Part shown: positions 40,490-64,000 of the stretch, in pieces
How the letters are laid out: each line of letters opens with the position of its first letter
How positions within the stretch are numbered: the first letter of the stretch is position 1
NCBI GenBank assembly: GCA_002709695.1
Contig: PAQF01000078.1
Span: forward strand, 116,980-180,979
DNA: 64,000 nucleotides
Source of the DNA: Candidatus Poribacteria bacterium
Lineage (GTDB): Bacteria; Poribacteria; WGA-4E; UBA9662
Direction: 5' to 3'
Program-made: the position numbers and the translations under genes
The notes under the pieces: model-generated
What the model was told of the DNA's origin: nothing
Seen by the model: the letters and a program-made list of their open reading frames with translations, nothing else
Databases searched by the model: none

Positions 40490-41638
40490 TTATTCAATCT
40501 GGTTCCAACCAATTCCTTGCCGAATGGCTTCGATTGCCACTTGATAACGCCAACCATCTTGAAAAGTCAAATAACTTTGATGGGGTTGATTGCAAATATC
40601 TGCGATGAAATCAATGACTAGTGCTACCCACATGTTTTGGATAATGTCACCAACTTGAGGCAGATTATTAGTTAATGCTTCTGGTATTGCTAAAGAACTC
40701 GTCTGAGAATTCTCAGTTTTTGAAAGTGAGAATGATAACATTCCCCCTCGCACTATTAAGGTTCCTTCATCACCATAGAAATACCAACCGTTAGTTTCAA
40801 CCGATTCGGCAATCCCACTTGTGACTCGCATCATAACAGGAACAACATTTTCTTTTTCTCTTTGAGAGTTAGGTAAGCTTAGTTTCATCAAGGCTGAAAA
40901 GGAACTTTCCCCATCACAAATCCGCCATTCCATATTGGTTGCGTCTTGAGGACTGATTTTGGTGTCTCGGAATTGCCGAAAGTCGTGTACATTAGTTAGA
41001 ACGGGGGCTCGTTCGTGCCTTTGTTCTGCTTGACCAACAACTGAACTTAGCTTCTTATTCGTTATTCTTTCTAGTATTCCTAACCAGTGTGGGAATCCAT
41101 TGTTAAGCATTCCTCCACCGTGAGATAGGGAGTTCATCCAACTCCAAGATTTTAGCTCTTTAGATTTTGGGTGGGAAGAAATTACATCAATCTGCTGCAA
41201 ATTACCAACTGATTGGTTACTCAACAGTTGATTGACCCAGGTTACACTGGGATGATAACAGTGAGTAGCTGCATAAGCATGTTTAACATTTGCCTCGTTG
41301 ACCAGATGATAAAAGTACTCGGCTTCTTTGGCTGTATTAGCCAATGGCTTGTCGCATAAAATGTGTGCGCCTAGCTCGACAGCCAATTCAATCACTGGAG
41401 CCCTCAAAATAGCAGGTGTGGCCAAAGCGACAATATCAGGTTTTACCTTTTCAAGGGTCTGTTGCCAATTGGTCGAAGCTATTTCTATGTCTAAATTAGA
41501 AGCAATTTTATCAACAACTTCTTGTTTACGAGCGCAGATGGCTGCGACCTTTACTCCACAGTATTGTAAGGCTTTGGTATGGCCTTCACCTGCCCATCCT
41601 GCTCCCACAATAATGGCCTTCAAATTCTGGGGTTTCAT
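40490..41638 (-). CDS. Gfo/Idh/MocA-family oxidoreductase
   Basis: N-terminal Rossmann LKAIIVGAGWAGEGHTKAL and C-terminal alpha/beta domain; 382 aa. Confidence 0.85.
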   Translation of the reverse strand: MKPQNLKAIIVGAGWAGEGHTKALQYCGVKVAAICARKQEVVDKIASNLDIEIASTNWQQTLEKVKPDIVALATPAILRAPVIELAVELGAHILCDKPLANTAKEAEYFYHLVNEANVKHAYAATHCYHPSVTWVNQLLSNQSVGNLQQIDVISSHPKSKELKSWSWMNSLSHGGGMLNNGFPHWLGILERITNKKLSSVVGQAEQRHERAPVLTNVHDFRQFRDTKISPQDATNMEWRICDGESSFSALMKLSLPNSQREKENVVPVMMRVTSGIAESVETNGWYFYGDEGTLIVRGGMLSFSLSKTENSQTSSLAIPEALTNNLPQVGDIIQNMWVALVIDFIADICNQPHQSYLTFQDGWRYQVAIEAIRQGIGWNQIE

Positions 41639-42240
41639 ATTAGTAACCTCTATTGTTTTTTTACAATACCTAGAGTCGATTTGACAAACCAGAAATCCAG
41701 TGGACTTTCGTACAATTCGATGATATCAGAGGATCATATTATATTAACGATGAGAAGGAGTGTCAATTATTAGAAATTGGACAATGGCTGTCTACTTGTG
41801 AGTAGAGCAAATTTGGATTTTACACTTTGAGTTTCAAACATAATCTAATCAACTCTAAACTTAGGAACCCATTGCAAAAAAATGGATTAGAATTCGTTGG
41901 AGTAGGGGATTGAGAATTTATGCTATTATGTCATATTTCTTGCTGGAAATTGGGGGCTCTGGTTAGTGTTTCAAGATTAACCAGAGTACAAGCACAGTAC
42001 ATACATTTCCATTATGGATTCGTTTAGGTAGCCATTTTATTCTTAGAGGCGTCCATATTTAATTATGTTTTATTGAATAATCCTTGGATTTCTTTGCTTG
42101 AATGAGTGATTTCAAATATTGTCTCTAAGAAGCGGGTGCAATTAAAAGAATCACTACTGAGTGTATGGATGAATACCTTTAGTGAAACCATAATTCGATT
42201 GATGCATAATGAATCTTATTTCTTTTAATAGGTCCTAAAT

Positions 42241-42256
42241 TATGTTAGAATACGCT
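42241..42256 (+). promoter_or_regulatory. Shared motif TATGTTAGAATACGCT (extended -10-like TGnTAGAAT) upstream of the PhyH gene
   Basis: 15 of 16 nt identical to the motif at 44731-44746. Confidence 0.4.
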
Positions 42257-42395
42257 TTCTTATTCCAATTAGCTATCTCCTAAATAATCCAACCCCCAGA
42301 ATGGTCTGTAATTCAGAATTTATTGGGCAGGTAACAAGTATAGGGGGCCGATTGTAGCCTCTTAAACACGATATTTATATGGAACTGGATTTAGA

Positions 42396-43211
42396 ATGAC
42401 CAAAGTATATGATTGCCAACCGACCCTTACTGATTCGCAGGTATTTTCTTTTTGTCGCGACGGATACTTAATGTTGGAGGGGGTTGTACCAAACGAAATC
42501 AATCAAAAAACGAATGAGTTTATTGAGCAAAATGGGCATAGGCCACTATTGGAAGAAGATTGGTTCATTGAACAAATCTTTCTGAATTCTGAGGTAGTTG
42601 GTGTCATAAGGTCTCTTTTAGGAGCCAATTTTGCATTGCCCATTAAATTGCCTAATCATCGAGCCAAATGTCCTCTGCCTTCCCAAAGTTGGCATCGAGA
42701 TGGTGGTTCTCGTTACGGCTGTGAATTGAATCACCTGCAAGTCTTCTATTATCCACAAGATACACCGGCAGAATTGGGGCCAACAGAAGTCTTACCAGGT
42801 TCACATTTCCTCTTTTCCTTGGGAAGTTGGATGGGCCACTATGAGGCCATACGTGGTTCTGTTTTGACTAGTGCACCAGCAGGTTCAATTTATATTACTG
42901 CATATTCGATCTGGCATCGGCGTGGGGTTTCTACAGCCACAGGCATACGTAATATGTTGAAGTATATATATTGGAGAACCACTCCTCCTGAGCATGATTG
43001 GATTAAGGAACCTGATTTCAACCATCGCCCACCTGCTAATTTTACCATGCCATCTGTTCAGCAACAACATCGCAATTGGTATGATGCTGCTGAAATGTAT
43101 TATTGGTTATGCGGTAGTAAGGAAAAACTTGAAGCTATGGTTGGAGACAAAGAATGGCCACCGGGTTATCCTGTTCCCCATTGGACCCCAGAGAACTATC
43201 ACAATTTCTAA
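42396..43211 (+). CDS. Phytanoyl-CoA dioxygenase (PhyH) family protein
   Basis: WHRDGGSRYG (HxD), LPGSHFLFS, YSIWHRRG. Confidence 0.75.
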   Translation: MTKVYDCQPTLTDSQVFSFCRDGYLMLEGVVPNEINQKTNEFIEQNGHRPLLEEDWFIEQIFLNSEVVGVIRSLLGANFALPIKLPNHRAKCPLPSQSWHRDGGSRYGCELNHLQVFYYPQDTPAELGPTEVLPGSHFLFSLGSWMGHYEAIRGSVLTSAPAGSIYITAYSIWHRRGVSTATGIRNMLKYIYWRTTPPEHDWIKEPDFNHRPPANFTMPSVQQQHRNWYDAAEMYYWLCGSKEKLEAMVGDKEWPPGYPVPHWTPENYHNF

Positions 43212-43304
43212 TAGAACTGAAAAAACGTTCCGTCCTGAATCACATGGCTTGAAGATCCTTACCATAGTTCCACTAGATTTTCCTCCCATATCTATGCATA
43301 GTGA

Positions 43305-44618
43305 ATGACTGATCAAAATCAAACCGACGAAAAAGCGTTTCTTATTGGAGTAATTAATGGCGCTCTGTGGAACGTTGTTACTGCTGTTATCCAACCCGAG
43401 CTTGTGTTATCAGCTTTTATTCTTAGGTTAAGAAACTCCGTAGTTTTAACAACTCTGCCTTTTGTTATCATGCGTCTTACGCACATGATTTCAAGCCTAC
43501 TTATCTCAAATATTGCTGAGACATGGCCACGGAAAAAAATATTCTATGTTGCAGGAGGGAGTTTCCGTGTCATCATGTTATGTCTAATTTCCCTCGCAAC
43601 TTATACCTTGGGGAAAAACTGGCCGAATCTCTTGCTATGGGTGTTTTTAGTTCTTTTGGGGTTCTATGCAGCTGGAATTGGGTCTAGTAGTATAGGTTTT
43701 AACGAAATTATTGCAAAAACCATTTCCTTCCGGAGACGGGGGCAATTGATGGGGCTACGTGGCTTTTTCGGTGGCTTGGTTGGTATTGTGAGTGGTTTCT
43801 ATGTTAGATTCATGTTGGGTGACGCAGGTCCCTCTTTCCCGCAAAATTACGCCTGCTTATATGCTACAGCGGCGTTTTTTCTTGGTTGTTGTGTCTTTAG
43901 TTTCGCGTTGGTTAATGAGCCTGCTGGGTATGTCAACACCAAGCGGGCTTCTGTATATCAGCATATTATTCAAGGCATCAGTATTTTAAAAACGGATCAG
44001 AACTTTAAGTTCCAGTATCTGAATAATTTAATGCAAGCGATGGCCATCATTGGGCCAGCCGTTTACTACCCTTATGCTATAAAGTTGCTTGGGGTACCTG
44101 AATCATTCGTTGGTAGTTTGCTCATACTTTCCGCTGCCCTTACTCTTCCAACAAACTTTCTTTGGAGCTATATAGGAGACAAACATGGAAATCGCCTTCT
44201 TTTGTTGATAAATACTTGTGTTTTTGTACTTTCACCAATCTTGATCCTTCTATCCGGATATTTGATGCGAACACCGCTGGCTGCTGTGAGTTGGAATACG
44301 GGACTGGGTTTTATCACCCCAGTTCGTATTTGTCTGATTTTGGCCTACGCTATTTTTACCATGACGAATATTGGAGGAATGATTGGCAGAATGAATTACC
44401 TTTTGGAAATTGCTCCCGATGGACGTCGTCCATCCTATATTGCTTTTATGAATATTATGCTTACACCAGCGGCTGCTTTTCCCTTGATTGGTGGAATGGT
44501 CTCGGAAAATTTATCGTTCCAAGCGAATTTTTTACTATCGTTTACCCTGAGCTTGGTTGCCTTGTATTATGCATACCGATTAGGAGAACCTCGCAATCAG
44601 CAAATAAATGGAAGATGA
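43305..44618 (+). CDS. MFS-like multi-pass membrane transporter
   Basis: ~12 predicted hydrophobic helices, a basic loop ETWPRKKIFYVAGG after TM2, and a basic central loop. Confidence 0.55.
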   Translation: MTDQNQTDEKAFLIGVINGALWNVVTAVIQPELVLSAFILRLRNSVVLTTLPFVIMRLTHMISSLLISNIAETWPRKKIFYVAGGSFRVIMLCLISLATYTLGKNWPNLLLWVFLVLLGFYAAGIGSSSIGFNEIIAKTISFRRRGQLMGLRGFFGGLVGIVSGFYVRFMLGDAGPSFPQNYACLYATAAFFLGCCVFSFALVNEPAGYVNTKRASVYQHIIQGISILKTDQNFKFQYLNNLMQAMAIIGPAVYYPYAIKLLGVPESFVGSLLILSAALTLPTNFLWSYIGDKHGNRLLLLINTCVFVLSPILILLSGYLMRTPLAAVSWNTGLGFITPVRICLILAYAIFTMTNIGGMIGRMNYLLEIAPDGRRPSYIAFMNIMLTPAAAFPLIGGMVSENLSFQANFLLSFTLSLVALYYAYRLGEPRNQQINGR

Positions 44619-44791: not shown

Positions 44792-45865
44792 GTGAATCAA
44801 AAAACCTATCGAGTTGGTGCTATTGGGCATAGTGGGGCAGGTAATTTCGGTCACCAAATCCATTTGGCCTACAGAGGTCTGGATAATGTTCAGTTTGTCA
44901 GTGTTGCAGATCCAAATCCAGATGGTCGTGAAAAAGCTGCCCAAGAGGCTGGGGCAACATCAAGTTATGCTGATTATAATGAAATGTTGATTGAGGAAGA
45001 TCTAGATATTGTTAGTGTGTGTCCGCGTTGGGGCACCGAGCGTTTAGATATGGTATTAGCCTGCTTAAATAATGGTTGTCATGTATATTGTGAAAAACCT
45101 ATGACAATGACCTTGGCTGATGGCGATCAAATTGTACAAACTGCAAAAGCAAATAACCTCAAAGTTGCCGTTGCTCATCAAGCCGTTTATTTGCCTCGTC
45201 TACATCAACTCAGACAGCTAATCGAAAATGGGAAAATTGGAGAGGTCGAAGTTGTGAGTGCAACAGGGAAACAGGATCACAGAGGCGGTGGTGAAGATAT
45301 GATTGTACTTGGTACTCATTTGTTTAATATGATGAGATTTTTTGTTGGAGACGTTAATTGGATGTCATCTCACGTAATTGAAGATGGGGATGAAATTGTT
45401 GCGTCCTCTGGGAGAGAGGCCAATGAACCAGTTGGCAAAATTGCCGGCGATTGTATTCGTAGTTACTTTGCTTTCAAAAGTGGTGTTTCTGGTTACTTTC
45501 AGTCTAAGAAAGATCGGGCACAGGGAGAACAGACTTACGGCATGAACATCGTTGGAACTGAAGGTGTTATTTCCTTGCTAGGTGGTGCTGCTGAGAACTT
45601 ATCCCTTTATCCTTATCGATATTTTAATCCGACGAACCAAGACCAAAGTTGGGAAATTATCCAACTGGAAAGCAACCAGTTAATGGAAGGGAATCGTCTG
45701 GCAGCACTTGACTTGATTCGAGCAATTGAAAATGACAACGAGCCTATTTCCAGCGCCGCAGATGCAGTAGCAGCCTTGGAGATGATTCATGGCGCTTACG
45801 TATCCCAAATTTCCGAGTCAAGGGTCTACTTTCCTGTTTCCGACCGGTTACATCCTTTAAATTGA
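44792..45865 (+). CDS. Gfo/Idh/MocA-family oxidoreductase
   Basis: YRVGAIGHSGAGNFGHQIH Rossmann, EKPMTMTLADGDQIV; 357 aa; GTG start. Confidence 0.85.
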   Translation: MNQKTYRVGAIGHSGAGNFGHQIHLAYRGLDNVQFVSVADPNPDGREKAAQEAGATSSYADYNEMLIEEDLDIVSVCPRWGTERLDMVLACLNNGCHVYCEKPMTMTLADGDQIVQTAKANNLKVAVAHQAVYLPRLHQLRQLIENGKIGEVEVVSATGKQDHRGGGEDMIVLGTHLFNMMRFFVGDVNWMSSHVIEDGDEIVASSGREANEPVGKIAGDCIRSYFAFKSGVSGYFQSKKDRAQGEQTYGMNIVGTEGVISLLGGAAENLSLYPYRYFNPTNQDQSWEIIQLESNQLMEGNRLAALDLIRAIENDNEPISSAADAVAALEMIHGAYVSQISESRVYFPVSDRLHPLN

Positions 45866-46030: not shown

Positions 46031-47521
46031 TTAGGGGTTGTCAAGCTGAGCTATTGCATTTAAATAATTTGAAATTTGTTGTTGGTAACGAACAGGGATA
46101 CGATCTCTTTCTATTGCTTCAGCATAATTTTGTTTGGCATTCAAATATGCTCTTTGAAATGTGATGTATTTGGGCTCAATACTGCTATCAGAGTTTTGAG
46201 ACACAAAAACCCGCGAAAGTCCTTGGCGATCAGATGAAATAGTATTTAATTTGAGATCAACATTGTTAGTATCCTTAGGAAAGATAAAATCTCTATCTAA
46301 CTGTGTTGGTATTGACGTCGGTGTATCCTGGGTAGCATCGAAATTTTGCTTATTGGGTTTCCAACGATTATTGTCCGATTGGGTTACTATTCCTTGTGTA
46401 TCACCTGTTACAGATTTCTGACTAGGATGGCCACTGCCATCGGCAACGCTGCTACCACTTTGATTCATTTCAATTCCAGCTAGTGCTATACGCCTTCGGC
46501 CTTCCCGAATTCGGTTTAGCGTTTCCTCTATTGCCATTAAATGCTGAAGTTTCTGGTCTAGATCAAGTAGTGCGTCTGCCATACGTTTTAACTTCTCAGC
46601 GCTGACTACTTCTGGTTGTAAATTTGAGAGTTCGTCTTTGATTTCACTGGGTATATGTTTTTGTTCTAAAGCTTTCGCAATCTTTTGTAATTTTTGTTTG
46701 AGTTCATTTCTTTGTTCATCATTCAGTGCATCAAATTGGTTAGCTAATTTATCGAGATTTGAGGCTAAATTCCCCATGGTCGTTTGGGTTACTTCATAAG
46801 TAGCTTTTCGGGTTTCTTTGAGTTGTTTGGTTTTAAATTCCCGTTTTTGTCGCTGCGCTTGATCTTGGAGTTGACTCAAGCGAGCTTGTGCTTGTAGGCT
46901 CGTTATGTGTTTATCTTTTAATTTATTGATTGTTTCCTGAATTTCTGCGTCCAATTGGTTTTTGTCGTCAAAACCTATGAGATTTTCAAATTGGCTGACG
47001 GTTTGATCAATGGCTTGTCTTTCGGCTGTAGTTGGTAGTTTCGGTTGATTTTGCTCCTCATTGATAAAGAAAGAGAGACAAATTAAGGTAATTGGAATTG
47101 GAATCAATTTCCATGAAGCCGGCACTTTAAATGGGAAATCGGAGGATAATACAATTTTCTCAGCTTCATTTGCTGCATCATGTAGTTGAGCCTCATCAAA
47201 GTCGAGGTGGTCTTTCCTACGTAAAATGCAAACTGATGTACTTAGACGATCTTTCAGTTTCAAACGATCATCAGTAATCCTAGCGACTTGCAGAAGCTCA
47301 AGTTTTCGTGAAACAATAACAATTAAGATTCCAGTCAATAGAACAATTAAAGCAATTGGCAAATTAATGGGCAAACGGACAAACCTATTTACTGTCAATA
47401 GAATCCAAACCAGTGTTAGCCCACAGATTCCATAACGGGTACAATTATAGATAAGTTGATTATGGTAAAACCGTCGCTGAATTAGAACCAATTTGTTTAG
47501 TACAGATGATCTATTGTCCAT
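46031..47521 (-). CDS. Hypothetical membrane-anchored coiled-coil protein
   Basis: Two N-terminal hydrophobic helices, a third helix (LIPIPITLICLSFFI), then ~250 aa of Q/K/E-rich heptads and a Ser/Thr/Asn-rich tail. No recognisable catalytic motif. Confidence 0.45.
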   Translation of the reverse strand: MDNRSSVLNKLVLIQRRFYHNQLIYNCTRYGICGLTLVWILLTVNRFVRLPINLPIALIVLLTGILIVIVSRKLELLQVARITDDRLKLKDRLSTSVCILRRKDHLDFDEAQLHDAANEAEKIVLSSDFPFKVPASWKLIPIPITLICLSFFINEEQNQPKLPTTAERQAIDQTVSQFENLIGFDDKNQLDAEIQETINKLKDKHITSLQAQARLSQLQDQAQRQKREFKTKQLKETRKATYEVTQTTMGNLASNLDKLANQFDALNDEQRNELKQKLQKIAKALEQKHIPSEIKDELSNLQPEVVSAEKLKRMADALLDLDQKLQHLMAIEETLNRIREGRRRIALAGIEMNQSGSSVADGSGHPSQKSVTGDTQGIVTQSDNNRWKPNKQNFDATQDTPTSIPTQLDRDFIFPKDTNNVDLKLNTISSDRQGLSRVFVSQNSDSSIEPKYITFQRAYLNAKQNYAEAIERDRIPVRYQQQISNYLNAIAQLDNP

Positions 47522-47795: not shown

Positions 47796-49034
47796 CTAAA
47801 TATTGATGATTTCTATAGGGGTAGTATAACCACCTGCAATATGGGTTTCCAACCATTCTGGATCATCATTTCGAGGTAATGATAATACTGGTTTCCCTTT
47901 GCAACTCAAACGGTACAGTAACCGAGCATCATCAACCGAGTTAATATTTACTTTAGCTGGCGGAGAATTATGCAGCGTCATGTAATTGTCCCATAGAGTT
48001 ATGTCACCTGGCCGATGTAGGTGATCATAACGGAATTGTTCTTGGAGCACATGATCTTCAAGTCGGTCTAAAAAAGCACGGGACTTGCTTTGTGACATGC
48101 CATCGACTTCCACGGGAGGCCTTACACGAGGACGCGAAGCCCAGATTGGGCTATGGAACGACTTAATGCCAGAGCGAGGATTGGTGCGAACTAATGGTGC
48201 TAACCATCCTTCATCTGATTGATTTAATCGTCTTCGTAGTTGTATTTGTTCTAAGGCGAGTTGTTCTGAAGAAGGTAGGGCAGCAAAAGCAGATGCGGTG
48301 TCGACAAATGCCGTTTCACCATTTAAGGGAAGGCGCATTCGTTTCTGCATAAGTTCGTTGCAAGATCCCTCTAAATAAGGGGTAGTTGCGTTAGGTGCCT
48401 CCACCCAGTTTTTCCCCAGAGCGTTCCGAGATACAGGTGACTGATGGACCAAGAACATAGAAACATAAATAGGTAATGGTTCATACTCAATGTCTGTATG
48501 CCACGAACCTCCAGAACTGACTCGGATAGGGTTTTTATCATCTTGTACTCCGGTAATTTTTCCGCTGAAGTTGGAGACAAGCAATACGGCTGGTGATTGA
48601 TGAGGTAGGCACTGCAATTGGTTAGGGAATGTTAGATTGACTGCCGATACTCGTCGTTTTTCAAATGGAATCAACTCGAATGCTCCATTACTGTCTCCAT
48701 CAGACTGTGCTGGTTTCCCTCCGCGTAGGAAATTATTAGGGTGTGGCACGGGGGCTCCCCAGTAATTAGCAAATCGTTCAAAGTGAGCTAGTGAAAAGGT
48801 CGTTAGGTCTTGACCTGCTATGCAGATAATGCGGAATTGACTTAAGGCATCTAGCAAAAAAGTAATCTGCTCCGGATTCAATCGACCACACATATTTAGA
48901 CCAAAAAAGCGTAGTCCAGCACCACTGGCGGCCAATGGTCCTTCGCTATACGTGTCTTCACCAAATAGTCTACGTAATTGTTCATCCCAATGTTGCAGTT
49001 TCGCTTTTGGTTGCAGTTTCGCTTTTGGATTCAT
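47796..49034 (-). CDS. TauD/TfdA-family Fe(II)/2-oxoglutarate dioxygenase
   Basis: WHTDIEYEPLP (HxD), GETAFVD, WDNYMTLH distal His. The N-terminus contains the tandem repeat PKAKLQPKAKLQ. Confidence 0.7.
   Translation of the reverse strand: MNPKAKLQPKAKLQHWDEQLRRLFGEDTYSEGPLAASGAGLRFFGLNMCGRLNPEQITFLLDALSQFRIICIAGQDLTTFSLAHFERFANYWGAPVPHPNNFLRGGKPAQSDGDSNGAFELIPFEKRRVSAVNLTFPNQLQCLPHQSPAVLLVSNFSGKITGVQDDKNPIRVSSGGSWHTDIEYEPLPIYVSMFLVHQSPVSRNALGKNWVEAPNATTPYLEGSCNELMQKRMRLPLNGETAFVDTASAFAALPSSEQLALEQIQLRRRLNQSDEGWLAPLVRTNPRSGIKSFHSPIWASRPRVRPPVEVDGMSQSKSRAFLDRLEDHVLQEQFRYDHLHRPGDITLWDNYMTLHNSPPAKVNINSVDDARLLYRLSCKGKPVLSLPRNDDPEWLETHIAGGYTTPIEIINI
48998..49033. repeat. Perfect 18-bp tandem duplication (TTGCAGTTTCGCTTTTGG x2) within the first codons of the TauD-family gene
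   Basis: Plus-strand TTGCAGTTTCGCTTTTGGTTGCAGTTTCGCTTTTGG immediately precedes ATTCAT (start codon on the minus strand). Confidence 0.8.
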
Positions 49035-54661: not shown

Positions 54662-55456
54662 TTAAGAATCTACAAAGGGAAATGTCCCATTATAGCCTAG
54701 CGCGGTAATCGCCGGTAGTGACGAGCTGACGAACGAAATGCCTGGAAACATTGGTGTTTGCTGATAATGTAGTACCACGTTACTACGTAACGGAGTGTTG
54801 TCATCCTCTTGTGTCAGTTTGGCACCTTGGTGCGGAATATGGCTGAAGAAGACTACCGCGTCGCCAGTTAGTGGGTAAAGGTGGGTTTGTTGTTGTTTTT
54901 CGCACCACTGGTAGAATGGATTATCTGAGTTGTATCCACCGAGATGACGGATCTCTTCGGGCAAGGCGTTGTGGCAGAAGTTATCTATAAAGGTAAGTCT
55001 ACCTGTTTCAGGTGTGTTGTCTGTTAGGTAGAAGGTGGTATTGATGCAAAGCGGTCGCAATGCGTGGCGAGCTTCATCGGGAGCGTCCCAGTAATACCCG
55101 AAATCCTTGTGCCATTCTTGAGTATAGGCTCCAGGGTTAATATGCGCCCGAAAGCTGCGCAACTGGCATTGTCGGCCTAGCATGGCCTTGAGATACGGAG
55201 ATACCGAATCATGACCAATCAGTACTCGTGCCAACTCAGGTTCCTGTTCTAGTAGACGGTCGAAGGCCACATTGCCGACCTCGTTGCTAATATCCCATTC
55301 TTTGTGTTTGTATTTTCGTGTTAGGCATTCACGCCAAGCTTCAACTGTTTCTAAGTCGAGTGCGTCGCGCACAAGTAGATAGCCATGTTGATCTAGCGCA
55401 TCAAGCTGTGGTTCTAGGCCCTTAATTTCTGCCGTATCGGCGATTAGTTCTCCCAT
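54662..55456 (-). CDS. Phytanoyl-CoA dioxygenase (PhyH) family protein
   Basis: EWHKDFGYY (HxD), TGRLTFI, FFSHIPHQG. Confidence 0.65.
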   Translation of the reverse strand: MGELIADTAEIKGLEPQLDALDQHGYLLVRDALDLETVEAWRECLTRKYKHKEWDISNEVGNVAFDRLLEQEPELARVLIGHDSVSPYLKAMLGRQCQLRSFRAHINPGAYTQEWHKDFGYYWDAPDEARHALRPLCINTTFYLTDNTPETGRLTFIDNFCHNALPEEIRHLGGYNSDNPFYQWCEKQQQTHLYPLTGDAVVFFSHIPHQGAKLTQEDDNTPLRSNVVLHYQQTPMFPGISFVSSSLPAITALGYNGTFPFVDS

Positions 55457-56267
55457 ATTTTTCTCCTTTGCCTCATTTGTTTATCAATTGATCTATAAAA
55501 ACATTCTGTACACTGTGTCGTGGATATATCAACTGAATTTCGATGGTATAACATAGTTTATTTCTGTGTGCCAACCTGAGTTTATAAGAATTCATCCATT
55601 TTGCCGTCCTCTACTGAGATCTCGGTTTTCTCGTGTGGCTTGAGCTTTTTACTGTGTTAATTCCAAAAGTGGTCTTTGGCTGTGTGGAGACCGGGATCTG
55701 TCAACTTTAGTTTTGGACTAGATTTTACCAGTGCCAACAACTCAAAAATGGGCCGATTTCTCACCTCAAACCCAATCAAGAAAAGAATTTGAGGTAAATC
55801 TGACATAGAAGGCAGATTTGGAAACTTTTGCAGGCTGATGGTTCTTTCATTTTACCACAATTCCTGCTCCCTTCCAAGACTTTTGGCTATTTTACAATAG
55901 CGTGGTCTACGGTAAACGGGGCTAATGTGTTTCATGACAGAGAATGCTATCAAATTGTATTCTAATCTACTTGATAGCTATGATGCTGCAGTTTGGCTTA
56001 GCCGAATAAGGTTCAGACAAGTGTCTAGAGATTGTTTTATAGTTATTACATACTACACCAAAATGTTTTGTTACCTCTCTGAGGCATCTTCGACACTTAA
56101 TGTCTAATATTGCTGAAACATGTAATCTATTCAAATGTTTAGGTTGGAACTGATGGTTTCCTGGCTTTTTCAGTTTAGGCAAGAGGGCAAATCAATATAA
56201 CAGAGACCTTTAGTTTATGAGAGGATTTTAGATTTTATTTGTAGTTGTTAGTAGTTGAGTTTAACAT

Positions 56268-57446
56268 CTAACTGCCTAAGCGTTTGTTTTCTTCCTCAAG
56301 CCAGTCTGCATCAGCCATTGGCATTGGTGTCAGTTCCTCTAGTCCAGCTTCATTACGCCAGCGTATTAGTGGATGTTCGCGATTGAGCTGTGGGAGGTCA
56401 ACGCGTGTACCATAAGCTGAGGATTCAAAAATCCCCATTATAATTTCGATGACATGAAGGCCTTCCGCTCCGCTACATTCGTGTTCTCTTCCTTCATCTA
56501 AAGCTCGGACATATTCGTCTACAAACCAATAATCACCTTCAACCATACTGCTATTACCAGAAATGGTTTTGGCTGCTTGCTCAAAGCTTTCTGGGTATAT
56601 GGGTTTTAGAGCTTGCCATTGATCTAGGTTGTTGTTTACAGGCAGAGCGTGAGGGTTTGGTAACTTCCATGCACCTCGTGGGTGCCACATCAATCGCCCT
56701 TCTGTACCATAGAGTTCGACCACATGTGCATCCAAGTTCAACTTGTCAAAGCGATGTTGTAGCAGAGTACCCGTTACCCCATTGTCAAATTGTAATGATG
56801 CGGTGACGTGGTCACCTGCAATGATGCCGTTTCCACGTGGTGCAGGCAAAACATCTTGTGGAGTAATAGGACGTCCACGAGTAGTAGCATGTGCGGTAAC
56901 GCTCTGGCAATGGCCTCCAAATTTTATCATAGAGGTTAGTAAATGAGTGCCAATCTCCATTAGCCCAAAACCGCCATAATACCCTTTTCCACTAGCGTAT
57001 ATATAACGTAATTCGCCGATCTCACCCGCCTGATAGGCTCGATTAATAGCTTGTGTCCAAGCACTCAACCTCCACTGATGGTGAACCGCAACTTGGACTG
57101 ATTTTTTTGATGCTTTACTCATTACTGCATCAGTTTCGATAAGATTCAAACCCATCGGTTTTTCTACTTCAATGTTAACTCCATGTTCCAACACTCGTAA
57201 TGCTAGTGGTGCATGCAAGGCAGGGGCAGTTGGGATAGCTACAATGTCAGGTTCTGTTTGGCGGATCATTTCGTCCAAATCCGTAAATCGAGCTTCTACG
57301 TTAATCTCATTTCCTAAGGTATTTAGCCTATCCTCAAGCAAATCACACAAACCGACTACCTCCGCCCGTGGATGGGCGTGATAAACTCTAGCTGCTGAAG
57401 AACCACGGGATCGACAGCCTAAAATGGCAACTCGGTACTGTTTCAT
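56268..57446 (-). CDS. Gfo/Idh/MocA-family oxidoreductase
   Basis: YRVAILGCRSRGSSAARVY Rossmann, EKPMGLNLIETD; 392 aa. Confidence 0.85.
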   Translation of the reverse strand: MKQYRVAILGCRSRGSSAARVYHAHPRAEVVGLCDLLEDRLNTLGNEINVEARFTDLDEMIRQTEPDIVAIPTAPALHAPLALRVLEHGVNIEVEKPMGLNLIETDAVMSKASKKSVQVAVHHQWRLSAWTQAINRAYQAGEIGELRYIYASGKGYYGGFGLMEIGTHLLTSMIKFGGHCQSVTAHATTRGRPITPQDVLPAPRGNGIIAGDHVTASLQFDNGVTGTLLQHRFDKLNLDAHVVELYGTEGRLMWHPRGAWKLPNPHALPVNNNLDQWQALKPIYPESFEQAAKTISGNSSMVEGDYWFVDEYVRALDEGREHECSGAEGLHVIEIIMGIFESSAYGTRVDLPQLNREHPLIRWRNEAGLEELTPMPMADADWLEEENKRLGS

Positions 57447-58253
57447 TTTTTTCCCTTTGTCTAAGGATTATCGTAGAAAAAACGCGATTTGGAAATCGTT
57501 CTGCAATAGTCCAATTTAAAATGTAATCTGGTTGGAAGTTTTTTCCATTCTAGCAAATACAAACCTAATCCCGCAAGCTTTAAGTAGGATCTTGGAAATG
57601 GCTAACTATTAGTCCGATTCTAGTTCGGCTGAAACTATTCTTAAACAATCTATTTAGATTGGTTTGGGTTAGCAAAAAGCCACGTAAATCAATATTAATC
57701 TACACTATTGAGGTTCAGTCCTCTTTACCTTATATTCACTATGTTAAAATGCTTCTACATTGATCTTGGAGAAATGAAAATTATTTCCAATCACTGCGCG
57801 TGTTGAAATTGGTTTTGCTAAATTTCAAACTCTCGACGTTCGCCGGTTTTATAAGACTTACATCATCAATATATCAGCGGGTAAAGAAATGTTGTCACAG
57901 TAGTCTAAATTATCGACTAGATGCACATAAATTTACAGTATAGTCTGAAAATAAACAAATTCAAAGTGTCAAAGTACTGTATGAATATTATTTATCAGAA
58001 CAGCTGGATTCTAGATGGATTTAGGTTAACGCTAGAGCTGGCAGCTGATAAAGTTAACGAGTTATATTCAAAATTTTAATTCAAGATCTGTTTTCTACTT
58101 ATGTTGCATAACGCCCATGCTTGGTTTAGAATAGTTGATTGGAGATAGCCGTTATCAGGAATCGACGGTCTCAAGGGATTTCTATCGTGTTATGTGGTAT
58201 GTGACGATTCGAACGTAGAGCATCAAACTAATTGCTTAATTTGGAGGATTACA

Positions 58254-59267
58254 ATGAAAATCGCTGCTATGTTTACTGACGGTTCCGGTGGAATCGTTGA
58301 CCGGCCCGACCCTCAACCTGTCGAGGACTTTGTGTTGGTTAAAATCCGATCGGTGCCAATGTGTACCGAATATAAAGGTTTTAAAAGGGAACGTGAGCAA
58401 GATGCCGTGGGCTTTGGGCACGAAGCTGCAGGTGAAGTAGTTGCAGTCGCTCAATCGGGGCGGGTGAAGGTAGGTGATCGTGTTGTTGTTCAGCCTCAAC
58501 TTGGTTGCGGGGCTTGCTGGTTATGTCTAGATGGTGAACACATCCATTGCCAAAATGGGAGGCGACTGCCAGAAGGCCAGACAGCTGGGCACACTTATGC
58601 TCAATATATTCTCAAGCCCGATTGGTTGCTGTCACCTTTTCCCGAAGACATTAGCTATAAACACGCTGGAATGGCTTGTTGCGGTTTAGGACCAACATTT
58701 GGAGCTATGCAAAAGATGAATGTTAATGCCTTGGACACTGTTATGATTACGGGAATGGGGCCAGTTGGGCTTGGAGGCGTGATCAACGGTCATCATCGCG
58801 GTGCTAAAGTAATTGCAGTTGAGAGTCAACCTTTTAGGGCCAACCTGGCTCAAGAACTAGGGGCCACGGCTGTTTTTGATCCTAATGATGAGAATGTTCT
58901 AGATAAGATTATGGATTTAACTGATGGTTTAGGTGTTGATAAAGCTATGGATTGTTCAGGAGCGTCTCCTGCTCATCGATTGATGGTCGATGCACTTCGT
59001 CGAAAAGGGCAAGCTTGCTTTATCGGCCAGGGAGGGGATTTCCCTTTGGGTGCAAGTCGTGATATGATTAGCAAGGGAATAGGGCTACATGGGATTTGGC
59101 ACTATAATTTATCCTTCTTCCCTGCTTTGGTCAAAATGATCAATCAAGTTGGAGATCAGTTGGATAAATTCATCACCCACCAGTATGGAATGAGTCAAGT
59201 GCAGGAGGCTTGGGAACAACAATGTACAGGTAATGCAGGTAAAGTTGTTCTTGATCCATGGGCTTAG
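58254..59267 (+). CDS. Zn-dependent alcohol dehydrogenase (MDR family)
   Basis: Start at ATG 58254 with GGAGG RBS (the track ORF starts upstream at 58194). GHEAAGEV, CGACWLC structural-Zn Cys cluster, GMGPVGLG Rossmann. Confidence 0.8.
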   Translation: MKIAAMFTDGSGGIVDRPDPQPVEDFVLVKIRSVPMCTEYKGFKREREQDAVGFGHEAAGEVVAVAQSGRVKVGDRVVVQPQLGCGACWLCLDGEHIHCQNGRRLPEGQTAGHTYAQYILKPDWLLSPFPEDISYKHAGMACCGLGPTFGAMQKMNVNALDTVMITGMGPVGLGGVINGHHRGAKVIAVESQPFRANLAQELGATAVFDPNDENVLDKIMDLTDGLGVDKAMDCSGASPAHRLMVDALRRKGQACFIGQGGDFPLGASRDMISKGIGLHGIWHYNLSFFPALVKMINQVGDQLDKFITHQYGMSQVQEAWEQQCTGNAGKVVLDPWA

Positions 59268-59496: not shown

Positions 59497-60435
59497 ATGA
59501 AAGATGCTGGTAATTACATTGTTCCTAAGCTTGCTAAAATCCCAAATTGTACTGAAGTCACGATGGCGGGTAAGAAACTGGTTTTCGGGAAAACCATCTG
59601 GCAGCTTGAAGATAGTAACCACTTATTAGGAGATATTTCCGCTCTTCGGCGGCAGATGGACTCGGCTGGTTATTTGTTACTGCGAGGGTTTTTCGATCCC
59701 GTTCTAGTGGGCAAAGCTAGATCAGAAATCTTGGATTACATGTCATCACAAAATGTCCTCAACAGAGGTCAAGAGGCTGTTACTATTACGCAGGCAACAG
59801 CCTCACCTAACCATCATAGGTTAAGATTTACACATTCAGTGATTCAACAATTATCAGGATTTCTAGAAGTAGTCAATTCGCGCCAAATTCTGTCCTTTTT
59901 TGACAGTTTTCTGGGTGGGCCATCAATGTCGTTAGATCATAAATGGTTACGGGCTACTCCGCCAGGGAAAAATACGGGTGCCCACTGCGACGTGGTCTAT
60001 ATGGGAGCAGGTACTAAAGAACTATACACGGTCTGGACTGCTTTAAATAATATATCGTTGAATATGGGGCCATTGGCTGTTTGCCTTGATTCTCACCGAC
60101 ACCAGAAGCTAAGAGAAACCTATGGTGCTAGCGATGCACATGAAGACCTATTGGAAGGATATTTCAGTCGTGATCCTTATGAGATAATAGAAAAACTCGG
60201 TTTTCGTTGGGCGTCGACACCTTTTCAGGCAGGTGATATCGTGATTTTCGGTGTGTATTTAATGCATGGTTCCCTGGACAATTTGTCGGATAAATTTCGA
60301 CTGAGTTGCGATACCCGCTATCAGTTGGTGGATGCTGATGTGGATTGGCGCCACATGGGGGAACACCCTGACCAAATCCCAAAAGCAAAAAAACGTATAA
60401 GCATCCAAGATGCTAGAGCTAATTGGGGAATATAA
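59497..60435 (+). CDS. Phytanoyl-CoA dioxygenase (PhyH) family protein
   Basis: GAHCDVVYMG (HxD), CLDSHRH, YLMHGS. An alternative start MAGKKL at ~59563 is possible. Confidence 0.7.
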   Translation: MKDAGNYIVPKLAKIPNCTEVTMAGKKLVFGKTIWQLEDSNHLLGDISALRRQMDSAGYLLLRGFFDPVLVGKARSEILDYMSSQNVLNRGQEAVTITQATASPNHHRLRFTHSVIQQLSGFLEVVNSRQILSFFDSFLGGPSMSLDHKWLRATPPGKNTGAHCDVVYMGAGTKELYTVWTALNNISLNMGPLAVCLDSHRHQKLRETYGASDAHEDLLEGYFSRDPYEIIEKLGFRWASTPFQAGDIVIFGVYLMHGSLDNLSDKFRLSCDTRYQLVDADVDWRHMGEHPDQIPKAKKRISIQDARANWGI

Positions 60436-60563: not shown

Positions 60564-61601
60564 ATGATTGATGCAGATAATGAAAAAAGCAGGCTGGTTG
60601 ATGGATTGCTTCGTGATAAACGGGGCTTTTGGCAGCCGGAAAGAGGGACGGCTCCACCAAGTCCTCTATTCGCATGGCCACCAAGACCAACTGAGGCCTT
60701 CAAATGGCTATTTGGCTTTCCGGGGTATCTATTTCCATGGAACGTCATCTATATGGTAATTGCGATGCTGACGTGGAATTACCTTCAGCCTCCTCTGTCC
60801 CAGTGTGTCGATTTTCAAGCCAGCTGGATATTTGCGATATATGTCCGAAACCAGGTTATGCTTGTGATTATCGTCAGCGCATGGCATCTAAGACTCTGGT
60901 CATTCAAATCTCAGGGGTTCAAGTTTAAATACACTTCAGATTGGATGGCAACCGGAAAACGAAAGTTCCTTTGGAATAACCAGCTTTACGACAATGTTTT
61001 CTGGAGTTGTGTGAGCGGCGGCACAATTTGGACGGCTTACGAAGTTCTGATGCTATGGGCCTATGCTAATAAGATTATTCCTTATATTGACTGGCGTCAG
61101 AAACCTGTTTACTTTCTTGTAATGCTTTGTAGCATTCAGATGTGGAGACTCTTTCATTTTTATTGGGTTCATCGTCTTTTGCATTGGCGGTTACTCTACA
61201 AAGCTGGACACTATCTTCATCACAAAAATATCAACATCGGACCGTGGTCTGGATTAGCCATGCACCCGATTGAACACATCCTCTACTTCAGCTGCATTTT
61301 GATTCATTGGGTCGTACCTTCACACCCAATTCACATGTTGATGAATGCACATCATGCTGCATTTACCCCTGCACAGGGGCACGTTGGGTTCGAGAAACTT
61401 ACCATCAGTGGAAACTATAGTGTTCCCGCGGCTTCATATTTTCATCAATTGCACCACCGCTACTTTGAGTGCAATTATGGGGAAAACGATTTACCTTTCG
61501 ACATGTGGTTTGGTACCTACCATGATGGGTCTACTGAGGCACACACGCAGATGCGAGAAAAGCGAAGATCTAAACATAATATTCTAACTGAAGCCGATTA
61601 A
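60564..61601 (+). CDS. Fatty acid hydroxylase / sterol desaturase superfamily membrane protein
   Basis: Histidine boxes HFYWVHRLLH, HYLHHK, HMLMNAHH, HQLHHRYF, with hydrophobic helices. Confidence 0.8.
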   Translation: MIDADNEKSRLVDGLLRDKRGFWQPERGTAPPSPLFAWPPRPTEAFKWLFGFPGYLFPWNVIYMVIAMLTWNYLQPPLSQCVDFQASWIFAIYVRNQVMLVIIVSAWHLRLWSFKSQGFKFKYTSDWMATGKRKFLWNNQLYDNVFWSCVSGGTIWTAYEVLMLWAYANKIIPYIDWRQKPVYFLVMLCSIQMWRLFHFYWVHRLLHWRLLYKAGHYLHHKNINIGPWSGLAMHPIEHILYFSCILIHWVVPSHPIHMLMNAHHAAFTPAQGHVGFEKLTISGNYSVPAASYFHQLHHRYFECNYGENDLPFDMWFGTYHDGSTEAHTQMREKRRSKHNILTEAD

Positions 61602-61902
61602 CCTTTTTAAATAATGGCAGGAGAATTGGTTGTATCAATAGTTTTAGATGGAGAATCAGCTTCGCAAACTCTGCCCAACAACAGGAATCTGAGTATGTTA
61701 GCGTTGGGTCTAGGGGATGTTGATATCAAATTCGGGCATTCTATTCTGCACGCTGTGTAGTAGGTGAAACTGTCGAAGAAAGTTTCTCTAGCAACCAGCT
61801 ATATCTTTTGTGAGACAGGGCTTAGTTGCACATTTATTCAATATCAGCGCCAAGTGCACCCAATTGTAGTCTAAGGACAATCGAAATAGCCATTCAACTG
61901 CT

Positions 61903-62940
61903 TTACGGCCTTGCCGTTGCTGCTCCCATTGGATAAGGGCCATTGGTCAGAGGGTTCAAGCGAGCATGATCATAGACGGCATCTTGGATTTCCAAGACAC
62001 GGACGGCATCGAGGATATTTGTCTCGGGTACTTTACCTTCTTGAATAGCGCATAATCCTTCGTTAATTACGTTTCGCATGCGTTCACCATGTCCTAAGTC
62101 TTCTTCAAATTCTGTTCCTGTAGAGGTGTTAATTTCAATAAGAGGTTCACCTTTCTTACCATAGAAAGCGAACACTGAAGCCTTACTTCCGATGAAGCGG
62201 AAAAAGTGGTCACCACTGCGTCCTCCCTCAGAAGGGAAAGTGTAGCCAGATTCGATGATACCAGTAACACCATCATCACTACGTAACATTCCCACAGCAC
62301 TATCCTCTATTTTTCGTCCATACATAGAATTGGACATAATAGCTCCCACCACAGTTATCTGGTTTTCACCAACAAATTGCAGGTAAGTATCAATGCCATG
62401 GGCCCCCTCGGTTGCCCAACTCCCTCCACCAGATATTGCTGGGATGTTGTGCCAAGCGGATGGTGTGGGGTCGTAGCGCGTCGGCGATCCGTTGTTTAGC
62501 CGGCTGTTGTAGAGGACTAATTTACCTAAACTGCCGTCAGCAAACATCTTCTTAATTATCGCTACAATCTTGCTAGCACGGTTAGGCAAGGTCAAGGTGC
62601 TGAAAACACCATGCTTTTCGGAAGCCTCGGCTACTGGTCTGAGGCGAGCGGCGCAATCTGCGAATGGTTTATCGACCAAGTAAGGAATACGCCGGTCTAC
62701 ACAGGCCTGAATATGAGATGGTATCTTTATATGTTTTCCTGTGATGAGAGCTGCGTCCGGGCTAACGGTATCTAAGCATGTCCCTACTGTATCAAAACCG
62801 GGGCAACCGAATTCCTTCTCCAATTGAGTGCGCGCATCTTCATCTGTATCCATGACACCGATTATCTCATGACCGAGACTATACCCAATTCGACCTATAC
62901 TTCGTCCATGGTGGCTATAAGAAATGACTACTAGCTTCAT
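61903..62940 (-). CDS. Gfo/Idh/MocA-family oxidoreductase
   Basis: MKLVVISYSHHGRSIGRIG N-terminal Rossmann, DKPFADCAARL; 345 aa. Confidence 0.8.
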   Translation of the reverse strand: MKLVVISYSHHGRSIGRIGYSLGHEIIGVMDTDEDARTQLEKEFGCPGFDTVGTCLDTVSPDAALITGKHIKIPSHIQACVDRRIPYLVDKPFADCAARLRPVAEASEKHGVFSTLTLPNRASKIVAIIKKMFADGSLGKLVLYNSRLNNGSPTRYDPTPSAWHNIPAISGGGSWATEGAHGIDTYLQFVGENQITVVGAIMSNSMYGRKIEDSAVGMLRSDDGVTGIIESGYTFPSEGGRSGDHFFRFIGSKASVFAFYGKKGEPLIEINTSTGTEFEEDLGHGERMRNVINEGLCAIQEGKVPETNILDAVRVLEIQDAVYDHARLNPLTNGPYPMGAATARP

Positions 62941-63163
62941 TAATATACCTCACTATAATATTTGTGATATGCAGGGCCAAAGGATTTTCAGATAGAACAT
63001 AATTCACAACTATCTGAAAATTCGGTGAGTGGAGCATATCATCCAACGAATGCCCCGATCTTGTATTCTCGAATGTCAAATTCTCGTTGTTCTTGAAAGG
63101 GGAAATCTTACTGCAACAAGCACAAGTGATTACGAATCTGTTACCATACGATCATCTATTTAA

Positions 63164-64000
63164 TTATGTTATGCCTTCTTCTCGGCGCCAGCGTTCGAGT
63201 GGGTGCTCTCGGATTTCCAGTGGAGCGTAGACCCTTTCCTTACGTCGGTGTGATTCCCAAGTTAGGTTGATCATTTCCATACTGGCGACTCCTCCTCGCC
63301 CACTTGCAATTGGATCACGATCCTCTTCAATTGCATTTATTAGATCCCTGATCATTAAACGTTGGAGGTACAATCTTCCTCTGTTTTTACGGGGTTGTCC
63401 CTTTTCGTCATTGTCCTCTTCTTCTATGTAAACTTGCTCCCAGTTTTGTTGGGGGAGGTGACGTTGTCCTCGGTGGATGAACATTGTTGTGCCAACACTT
63501 TCTCGAATAGCGATGCGACCTTCAGTACCAATGAGGTCAATGCCGTATCCTTTATCGTCTCCTTGTGTTTCAGCGAGGAAAGCTGCCTCAGCATGGATAC
63601 CACTCTTGAATCGGAAGGAAGCGAAGCAACGCTCACCTAACACTAGGCCATCGCTATAGTCCTTCGGGTTCATTTCTTGTGCATCCTTTATATCATAAAC
63701 AGTAGATTCTTGGCCGTTAAGCTGGAGTAAGTGGGCGTGCACCCACTCGACGTCGCCAGCAAAGAGTCGCATCCAATCATAAAGATGGGTTCCCATTCCT
63801 ATTAAAGCATTACCTGACTTCCGTCCTCCCTTGTCGATGGCTTTGAGGTGTATGAGTTGGCCAATTTCCCCTTTTGTTATTAGGTCAAGAACAAGGTTAT
63901 TATAGAGACTGACACGCTTTATGTGGTTAATGGCTAGTTTGACCTTGTATGTGTCGCAAACTTGAACCATCTCATCAGCTTGAACTAAGTTGCGAGCCAG
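63164..64000 (-). CDS. Gfo/Idh/MocA-family oxidoreductase, partial (N-terminus probably beyond window end)
   Basis: The C-terminal alpha/beta domain is typical of the family. The reading frame stays open to position 64000 upstream of the listed Met, so the Rossmann domain is probably outside the window. Confidence 0.65.
   Translation of the reverse strand: MARNLVQADEMVQVCDTYKVKLAINHIKRVSLYNNLVLDLITKGEIGQLIHLKAIDKGGRKSGNALIGMGTHLYDWMRLFAGDVEWVHAHLLQLNGQESTVYDIKDAQEMNPKDYSDGLVLGERCFASFRFKSGIHAEAAFLAETQGDDKGYGIDLIGTEGRIAIRESVGTTMFIHRGQRHLPQQNWEQVYIEEEDNDEKGQPRKNRGRLYLQRLMIRDLINAIEEDRDPIASGRGGVASMEMINLTWESHRRKERVYAPLEIREHPLERWRREEGIT

Follow-up and report, generated by a model that had tools for sequence, protein, structure and literature searches.

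PhyH-like oxygenases and Gfo/Idh/MocA dehydrogenases crowded in a Candidatus Poribacteria genome: probably a fluid neighbourhood of separately transcribed accessory genes

The window analysed here, i.e., the whole stretch of DNA considered, comprises 64,000 nucleotides from a Candidatus Poribacteria bacterium (assembly GCA_002709695.1, contig PAQF01000078.1, positions 116,980 to 180,979). Its right part, positions 40490–64000 (in the following, the region), is crowded with PhyH-like 2-oxoglutarate (2OG)/Fe(II) oxygenases and Gfo/Idh/MocA oxidoreductases; an earlier note on this DNA had proposed a toolbox for oxidative tailoring or catabolism of a complex, possibly sulfated substrate. Our analysis would rather point, with a probability of about 0.6, to a fluid accessory-gene neighbourhood typical of Poribacteria, with separately transcribed genes and a plausible theme of decorated sugars, and not to an operon or a fixed pathway.

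Genes of the region

A listing of open reading frames (ORFs) and Pfam scans yielded 17 genes in the region. Their strand pattern (- +++ -- + -- + - - +++ --) corresponds to at least nine transcription units of alternating orientation. This is not the arrangement of a single operon or of a polysaccharide utilization locus (PUL), which would be co-directional, closely spaced and under a shared regulator: strands alternate, five spacers measure 643–834 bp, and no transcription-factor domain was found in the 17 genes by the Pfam scans. Neither glycoside hydrolases, lyases and outer-membrane transport genes (SusC/D or a TonB system) nor sterol-ring and beta-oxidation genes are present in the region, and none of the 17 genes, Gfo1 included, reached an NCBIfam equivalog cutoff. 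Since all enzymes of the region are without signal peptides, and one importer of the major facilitator superfamily (MFS) is encoded, the substrates would be small imported molecules.

Six PhyH genes had been reported for the region; we found five PhyH-like genes, namely three solid ones, a marginal one and one under the Pfam threshold (gathering score of PF05721, 22 bits). The solid ones are PhyH3 (53718–54566, plus strand, 112 bits), PhyH4 (54662–55456, minus strand, 41.6 bits) and PhyH5 (59497–60435, plus strand, 59 bits). PhyH1 (42396–43211, plus strand), the first gene of the co-directional group PhyH1-MFS-Gfo2, scored 22.9 bits, and the divergent 2OG/Fe(II) oxygenase PhyH2 (49869–50777, plus strand) 18 bits. 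An iron triad HxD/E...H can be read in all five translations (WHRD in PhyH1, RHVD in PhyH2, WHQD in PhyH3, WHKD in PhyH4, AHCD in PhyH5), each with a later His after a strand of the (P)xGx(V/I)xxF type; H134, D136 and H221 are invariant in the family alignment of PhyH3. As for the two weak candidates, PhyH2 matched a 2OG-Fe(II) oxygenase in the PDB (8xp6, E = 9e-10); PhyH1 was without a match in the PDB sequence search and matched the PhyH gene at 1–708 by BLASTP (E = 2e-4). Profile comparison of PhyH1 and PhyH2 with the PhyH3 family alignment gave probabilities of 21% and 0.2%, figures which are uninformative because the profile is too narrow. A blastx search of 11 spacers against all window proteins revealed no hidden sixth PhyH and no remnants of decayed paralogs. 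The two further PhyH genes claimed outside the region do exist, namely PhyH_a (1–708, minus strand, recognised from its translation and truncated by the window edge) and PhyH_b (16868–17677, plus strand, 86.8 bits); the window total is seven, not eight.

For the Gfo/Idh/MocA family the earlier count of five genes plus a sixth was wrong, and four complete genes and a partial one make up five altogether. These are Gfo1 (40490–41638, minus strand; PF01408, 63 bits, and PF22725), which forms a transcription unit of its own, Gfo2 (44792–45865, plus strand; PF01408, 76 bits, and PF02894), Gfo3 (56268–57446, minus strand; PF01408, 71 bits), Gfo4 (61903–62940, minus strand; PF22725, PF02894 and PF01408) and Gfo5 (63164–64000, minus strand; PF02894 and PF22725), whose N-terminus is cut by the window end and whose ortholog in a related contig (L091) is full-length with 376 amino acids. 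The four complete genes combine the Rossmann domain PF01408 with a C-terminal domain (PF02894 or PF22725), whereas Gfo5 retains the C-terminal part only, owing to the cut. Matches of the region's Gfo proteins to IolG, levoglucosan dehydrogenase and glycoside 3-dehydrogenase were weak, far below the equivalog cutoffs.

In an all-versus-all BLASTP of the window, the PhyH copies were about 20–28% and the Gfo copies 20–29% identical to each other (Gfo2 with Gfo3 and Gfo5, 25–29%), and the adjacent Gfo4 and Gfo5 did not match each other at all. Orthologs of window genes in other genomes are 60–99% identical, as against at most 29% among the window paralogs, and for several region genes orthologs of 66–87% identity occur in many other genomes. 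Because their mutual identity is only 20–29%, the PhyH and Gfo copies would appear to be paralogs of ancient origin, with a separate line of orthologs for each, and not the recent tandem expansion which had been considered an option for PhyH. The subfamily of PhyH3 comprises at least 120 protein clusters, all at least 66% identical among the matches listed and several of them from genomes of 4–6 Mb; orthologs with 83% (L001) and 77% (L005) identity have unrelated neighbours, and the surroundings differ in every context examined. PhyH3 belongs to an orphan subfamily of PhyH with very high conservation.

TauD, MFS, cupin, Cys-type sulfatase, Zn-dependent alcohol dehydrogenase (Zn-ADH) and fatty-acid hydroxylase were confirmed by Pfam, one gene each, at the expected positions. 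The S1 sulfatase (51614–53074, minus strand; PF00884, 176.8 bits, and SGSH_C) carries the formylglycine motif CSPAR (C/S-x-P-x-R near the N-terminus), read in 'YPVCSPARGTIQTG', its catalytic domain starts at residue 5, and it is without a signal peptide; it is therefore a cytoplasmic enzyme of the Cys type, as had been supposed. Among the Pfam matches of the window no sulfatase maturation enzyme (formylglycine-generating enzyme, FGE, or anaerobic sulfatase-maturating enzyme, anSME) was noticed. In the PDB the sulfatase is best matched by, among others, exo-2S-iota-carrageenan sulfatase, GlcNAc-6-sulfatase and choline sulfatase, and no steroid sulfatase is among the PDB matches listed. The metal-binding cupin (51136–51612, minus strand; PF07883 and PF00190) follows 1 nt downstream of the sulfatase stop; both metal-binding motifs are present, and such matches as it has (oxalate decarboxylase, RemF, sugar isomerases) are weak.

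The TauD/TfdA-family 2OG/Fe(II) dioxygenase (47796–49034, minus strand; PF02668, 87.7 bits) contains the motif WHTD, with H179, D181 and H355 invariant. It belongs to a subfamily of about 400 amino acids with 66–75% identical homologs in metagenome-assembled genomes (MAGs) labelled Poribacteria, Latescibacteria, Planctomycetaceae and Chloroflexota; the subfamily is without a characterised member or a close solved structure. Sequence matches to TfdA-like proteins, TauD and Rv3406 all had E values of 1e-3 to 3e-5. The AlphaFold2 model was of moderate confidence (mean predicted local distance difference test, pLDDT, 63.9; predicted template modelling score 0.68), and Foldseek retrieved with it AAD-1, TfdA, RdpA, TauD and AtsK about equally, at 12–17% identity. 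Assignment of a substrate from this structure was given up, since TfdA, TauD and AtsK match a model of such confidence equally well, and a role as an AtsK-like sulfate-ester dioxygenase is, on the model, neither favoured nor disfavoured. Within the gene, a perfect 18-nt tandem duplication (48992–49027) encodes PKAKLQ twice at the N-terminus; it looks strain-specific, since the closest homologs (88–97% identity) have 406 amino acids and the window protein has 412. Downstream of TauD lies a gene for a protein of 496 amino acids (46031–47521, minus strand) that matches neither a Pfam nor an NCBIfam family. It has hydrophobic stretches in its N-terminal part and a long, charged middle part rich in Q, K and E, and it was not found beside TauD orthologs in the relatives' loci examined.

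The remaining genes are the MFS transporter (43305–44618, plus strand; PF07690, 74 bits), a Zn-dependent alcohol/polyol dehydrogenase of the medium-chain dehydrogenase/reductase type (58254–59267, plus strand; PF00107 and PF08240) and a membrane protein with His boxes of the fatty-acid hydroxylase/sterol-desaturase family (FAH; 60564–61601, plus strand; PF04116, 60.6 bits). The longest ORF of the Zn-ADH starts at 58194, and the likely start is MKIAAMF at 58254; its best NCBIfam matches, threonine and scyllo-inosose dehydrogenases, are far under the cutoff.

Gene order and recurrence of families in relatives

For the search of relatives, 105 loci were fetched via four anchors and compared by tblastn with every window protein. 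The order of genes was kept in contigs of strain level, i.e., Gfo1-PhyH1-MFS-Gfo2 in L085 (93–99% amino acid identity; the only contig in which the linkage of Gfo1 is kept) and PhyH5-FAH-Gfo4 in L090 (99%). In L091, a relative of about 85% nucleotide identity, ADH-FAH-Gfo4-Gfo5 are intact, but PhyH5 is a remnant (L091 729–1306) from which codons 49–212 are deleted and which is frameshifted, a direct example of the decay of a single gene within the neighbourhood. Gfo4 was found beside FAH only in L090 (99%) and L091 (90%).

At 85–87% protein identity the neighbourhood is lost, as judged from three independent anchors, TauD, sulfatase and FAH. Only sulfatase-cupin is kept in L006, which was fetched via the sulfatase; no other region gene is common to the two loci with TauD orthologs of 85% and 77% (L097/L098), nor to the locus with an FAH ortholog of 87% (L092), where the gene stands among the housekeeping genes YchF, Ddl, M48 peptidase and BipA and behaves as a stand-alone gene. 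A 64% homolog of the MFS transporter (L086) has unrelated neighbours, with PhyH1 and Gfo2 absent; a 44% homolog lies within a glycan-degradation cluster. Among 66 loci with a sulfatase homolog of at least 40% identity, none had a match of at least 40% to TauD, Gfo1–5, PhyH1–5, FAH, ADH or MFS within ±10 kb. A scattering of the genes in relatives was one of the outcomes which the earlier note had named as speaking against its proposal, and it is largely what these loci display. The presence of the block across related genomes had likewise been put up for comparison; it is not conserved beyond contigs of strain level. The region is probably a set of loose, quickly reshuffled accessory genes.

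Smaller units are more durable. In 17 genomes (17 of the 66 sulfatase-homolog loci) the sulfatase ortholog is immediately followed by a cupin ortholog of 80–88% identity; sulfatase and cupin, which had already been listed together, are a conserved two-gene module. The sulfatase itself has an ortholog of 87% identity, the closest, in Candidatus Poribacteria MAG OC6_3000m_MAG_233 (3000 m depth), and orthologs of 76–79% in about 18 other genomes; a look-up of its exact sequence in the assembly collection gave no entry. Across L097–L105, TauD is adjoined by a Gfo gene in two cases and by a sulfatase in a single case. On a Latescibacteria contig (L101/L102) an 81% ortholog of Gfo3 is situated 48 bp upstream of a 72% ortholog of TauD; in the window the two share a strand and are separated by 7.2 kb, in which PhyH4, PhyH3, sulfatase-cupin and PhyH2 are located. 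The adjacency in L101 suggests that the approximately 7 kb between them may have been inserted into an older pair.

With respect to families, PhyH ranked first among the Pfam families of 101 ORFs from the loci of seven relatives, with about 7–9% of ORFs in the sampled loci. A compact, co-directional run (about 4800–15500 of each locus), present in some 15 species-level genomes labelled Latescibacterota (L007–L019, L026, L069), consists of four PhyH genes, an esterase, a sulfatase, a cupin, a 3-hydroxyisobutyrate-dehydrogenase-like gene, a fifth PhyH and a short-chain dehydrogenase/reductase, and two further sulfatases adjoin it. In its organisation this run resembles an operon much more than the region does. 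For only one of its PhyH genes does the window contain an ortholog, the 1–708 gene PhyH_a (59% identity); by tblastn the relatives' copy is located 1.3–2.7 kb upstream of sulfatase-cupin in L007–L026 and L069, whereas PhyH_a is 51 kb away from the sulfatase in the window. L101 contains, besides Gfo3-TauD, four PhyH genes, a cupin, a paralogous sulfatase, MR_MLE, DHDPS, aldo-keto reductases and a GH127/PcRGLX-like gene; L104 has four PhyH genes with TauD-Gfo-AP_endonuc_2, and in L105 a gap of 55 bp separates TauD from a paralogous sulfatase downstream of it. What recurs together are the families and not the individual genes, with non-orthologous members and often beside sugar-acid and glycan genes. 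The toolbox idea is supported insofar as the same families co-occur in relatives; their members differ, and a fixed pathway does not emerge.

Spacers, composition and the left 40 kb

Long AT-rich spacers, pointed out before, were confirmed in five places, with a G+C content (GC) of 0.30–0.37 as compared with 0.42 in coding sequence. All but one are flanked by divergent genes: 41639–42395 (757 bp, GC 0.337), 49035–49868 (834 bp, GC 0.338), 53075–53717 (643 bp, GC 0.302) and 57447–58253 (about 807 bp, GC 0.343); the fifth, 55457–56267 (811 bp, GC 0.367), separates the tandem minus-strand genes Gfo3 and PhyH4. Since the left 40 kb contain spacers of comparable length (751, 580, 648 and 1292 bp), they are not special to the region. 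The last of these (36195–37486, GC 0.337), which separates divergent genes shortly before the region, exceeds all other non-coding stretches of the window in length and contained no ORF of at least 150 amino acids, Rfam match or tRNA. In the marine relatives L001, L092 and L086 (GC 0.44–0.47) the coding density, from ORFs of at least 120 amino acids, is 58–74%, with gaps of 1.8–2.6 kb in L092; because of this low density in relatives, long intergenic stretches would seem to characterise the lineage and not the region in particular.

Spacers diverge faster than genes in related contigs. The 757 bp spacer is 92% identical to that of L085 at the nucleotide level, as against 95–97% for the flanking genes, and of the 643 bp spacer only the first approximately 76 bp beside the sulfatase align with L006. 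The spacers gave no Rfam matches at the gathering threshold and no tRNAs with ARAGORN, and a comparison for shared motifs, repeat families or regulatory elements among them produced short chance matches only. A perfect 12/12 sigma-70 consensus (TTGACA-17-TATAAT) is present on the minus strand at 41766–41738, about 100 bp upstream of the Gfo1 start; beyond this the promoter scan yielded little else, and terminator counts were at the level of shuffled sequences.

The G+C content at third codon positions (GC3) is 0.384 in the region genes and 0.335 in the left 40 kb (Mann-Whitney P = 2e-4). Values of 0.42–0.46 were obtained for PhyH2 (0.455; total GC 0.50, among the highest of the region), PhyH4 (0.464), FAH, Gfo4 and Gfo5, and the minimum of the region, 0.296, for the 496-amino-acid protein. 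Coding density is 74% in the region and 87% in the left 40 kb. The region has no tRNA, no flanking repeats and no integrase or transposase among its Pfam matches, so that the modest shift in GC3 is the sole sign of a genomic island.

The left 40 kb are mostly of housekeeping character, with hisI, CobW GTPases, ribosomal protein S4, DsbD, a glycolate-oxidase-like cluster, an Mrp/NUBPL ATPase and cysteine desulfurase; synteny with this part was not found in the fetched loci. Amid these genes are located a WD40 beta-propeller protein (4633–5685) and a TPR protein (25176–26261), eukaryote-like repeat proteins of a kind reported as typical of Poribacteria. The only glycoside hydrolase found in the window, of the GH95 alpha-L-fucosidase type (13918–16287, 589 bits), lies beside PhyH_b, 24 kb from the region. 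At the left junction a gene for a thiamine pyrophosphate enzyme resembling the alpha subunit of indolepyruvate-ferredoxin oxidoreductase (IOR-like; 38580–40202; 405 bits, equivalog cutoff 651) has no adjoining gene for a beta subunit and is paired with a Zn-ADH (37487–38542). Metagenome contigs match parts of the region at 94–99.6% nucleotide identity and reproduce this junction with the IOR-like gene; the assembly is therefore sound. Close homologs of MFS and TauD, like that of the sulfatase, carry Poribacteria labels, and the host is a pelagic, deep-sea Candidatus Poribacteria.

Interpretation and comparison with known systems

In the fluid neighbourhood proposed here, the five PhyH-like and the one TauD-like oxygenase would hydroxylate, demethylate or desulfonate small substrates, and the five Gfo/Idh/MocA enzymes and the one Zn-ADH would oxidise hydroxyls of sugars or polyols in an NAD(P)-dependent manner. 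The MFS transporter would act as importer, and the sulfatase-cupin pair could take sulfate off an imported sulfated sugar-like molecule, followed by processing of the product. Families which expanded massively and long ago in this phylum would gather in the same parts of the genome, where genes are gained, lost and shuffled singly or in pairs; the long AT-rich spacers would for the most part be junctions of rearrangement and promoter regions of divergent genes. As a common theme we infer that decorated sugars, sulfated and possibly O-methylated, are scavenged in the cytoplasm, and the assignments of substrates are all of this inferred kind. Because these families come together repeatedly in relatives, frequently with genes for sugar acids and glycans nearby, a loose "sulfated sugar" theme is plausible, and to this extent the earlier idea of a sulfated substrate stands. 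Its sterol or lipid part found no support, since the relatives of the sulfatase include glycan and choline types and FAH is a stand-alone gene in a relative.

The main rival explanation is a chance aggregation of abundant families without any functional theme, each gene having its own unrelated substrate; it deserves to be taken seriously, although we consider it rather doubtful. Chance would account for the abundance of PhyH (about 7–9% of ORFs in relatives' loci, more than 1.9% genome-wide; PMC3909097), for paralogs which are all deep, for orthologous synteny limited to small modules, for a region without a regulator or a motif common to its spacers, and for the position of FAH amid housekeeping genes in L092. 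It is less easily reconciled with the frequencies in the region. Against a background of 174 non-anchor genes from the loci of ten relatives (PhyH 6.9%, Gfo 2.3%, sulfatase 2.9%), five Gfo among 17 genes have a binomial P of 3e-5, and even at a background of 5% they are improbable (P = 0.001); for five PhyH among 17, P is 0.005 against 6.9% and 1e-5 against the 1.9% of the literature. Due to this enrichment of both families the local crowding exceeds chance. The combination of families, moreover, recurs in independent genomes and in tight adjacency (TauD-sulfatase, 55 bp; Gfo-TauD, 48 bp; a co-directional run of five PhyH with sulfatase and cupin).

Several considerations also weigh against the proposal of a fluid accessory neighbourhood. 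The background loci were anchored on homologs of region genes and are not random samples of genomes, and an enrichment of Gfo and PhyH above background would also fit a selected, functionally integrated toolbox. The shift in GC3 is modest and could reflect expression level rather than gene acquisition. Close relatives are known as short contigs only, so that the presence of the region at the genus level is poorly sampled.

A more far-reaching suggestion would be that PhyH/TauD-like oxygenases, Gfo enzymes and cytoplasmic sulfatase-cupin pairs constitute a recurrent, modular "guild" in Poribacteria/Latescibacteria-type bacteria, which strips decorations from imported marine sugars; these decorations could be sulfate esters, O-methyl ethers and unusual hydroxyl patterns. 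We put this forward tentatively, as an unlikely case. If it were true, the PhyH expansion would be explained as a battery of sugar O-demethylases and hydroxylases, and the pairs Gfo3-TauD and sulfatase-cupin would be its first defined modules.

A dedicated pathway for the catabolism or tailoring of one complex sulfated substrate (sterol, lipid, terpenoid or glycan), with genes regulated individually via the long spacers, was the notion closest to the earlier note, and it now seems improbable. The presence of sulfatase, TauD-like enzyme, hydroxylase, transporter and many oxidoreductases within 24 kb, their local enrichment over background and the adjacency of TauD and sulfatase in L105 had made it attractive. 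Yet the block is not conserved at 85–87% identity for any of the three independent anchors, PhyH5 is dispensable in L091, and FAH stands alone in L092; there are at least nine transcription units and no regulator, and no glycoside hydrolase, lyase, sterol-ring or beta-oxidation gene. In addition, the sulfatase resembles glycan and choline sulfatases and not steroid sulfatases, and TauD is not assignable to the AtsK type. Acquisition of the region as a genomic island by horizontal transfer, or its origin in a recent tandem expansion of paralogs, is very improbable, since, despite a GC3 above and a coding density below that of the left 40 kb, there are no tRNA gene, integrase, transposase (Pfam matches) or flanking repeats, the paralogs are at most 29% identical, and the closest homolog of each gene is in Poribacteria or Latescibacteria-type genomes. 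A tailoring cluster for a secondary metabolite was dismissed, as no polyketide synthase, nonribosomal peptide synthetase or terpene synthase is encoded in the window.

Since 2014 no other unexplained feature of poribacterial genomes has been as striking as the PhyH expansion. According to the present locus and its relatives, PhyH genes are spread unevenly and accumulate in the vicinity of sulfatases, TauD-like oxygenases and dehydrogenases of the sugar type, with a fast turnover of members. Concrete small modules can be named, i.e., the sulfatase-cupin pair, the Gfo3-TauD pair and two orphan subfamilies of oxygenases with very high conservation. The case also calls for caution, since a crowded stretch of abundant families need not be a pathway.

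PULs of marine Bacteroidota and of bacteria of the Planctomycetes-Verrucomicrobia-Chlamydiae group combine sulfatases with glycoside hydrolases, a transporter and a regulator. The region resembles them, and clusters for sulfated glycans in general, by its formylglycine-type S1 sulfatase, importer and sugar-type dehydrogenases close together, and homologs in relatives adjoin heparinase-, GH127- and PcRGLX-like genes. It differs by the absence of a glycoside hydrolase or lyase, of SusC/D or TonB and of a regulator, by cytoplasmic enzymes, by alternating orientation and by a gene order which is not conserved. Oxidative pathways for glycosides and sugars, in which Gfo enzymes act with xylose-isomerase-like TIM barrels, offer another comparison: four to five Gfo enzymes of the region have weak matches there, and relatives pair Gfo with AP_endonuc_2 and a 3-keto-disaccharide hydrolase, whereas genes for the partner TIM barrel and the hydrolase are absent from the region, a single AP_endonuc_2 gene (10224–11084) being 30 kb off.

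The nearest parallel is the PhyH expansion described by Kamke et al. in 2014 (PMC3909097), where PF05721 was the most abundant Pfam domain of Poribacteria (more than 1.9% of genes, less than 0.05% elsewhere) and 305 PhyH sequences of mostly unknown function fell into 193 clusters at 60% identity. The seven PhyH-like genes of the window, from the same phylum and mutually divergent, agree with this picture; low identities and phylum-wide expansion together largely amount to the deep paralogs, common across the phylum, which had been named in advance as speaking against a toolbox. That work gave genome-wide counts, with no report of local clustering or of sulfatase, Gfo or TauD as company, and its proposal of phosphonate use by PhnY/PhnZ is inapplicable to the region, because there is no HD-phosphohydrolase neighbour. 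That PF05721 proteins can O-demethylate a sugar ring is known from the PHYHD1/FJS-type 2'-O-methyl-nucleoside demethylases, including a tested enzyme from Poribacteria (PMC12709175). The window PhyH proteins belong to the same Pfam family; none was accepted as an ortholog of the tested enzyme, the best match having only 24% identity. The phenomenon is thus known at the phylum level, and the locus is another example of it, which adds a modest lead on the co-localisation of families.

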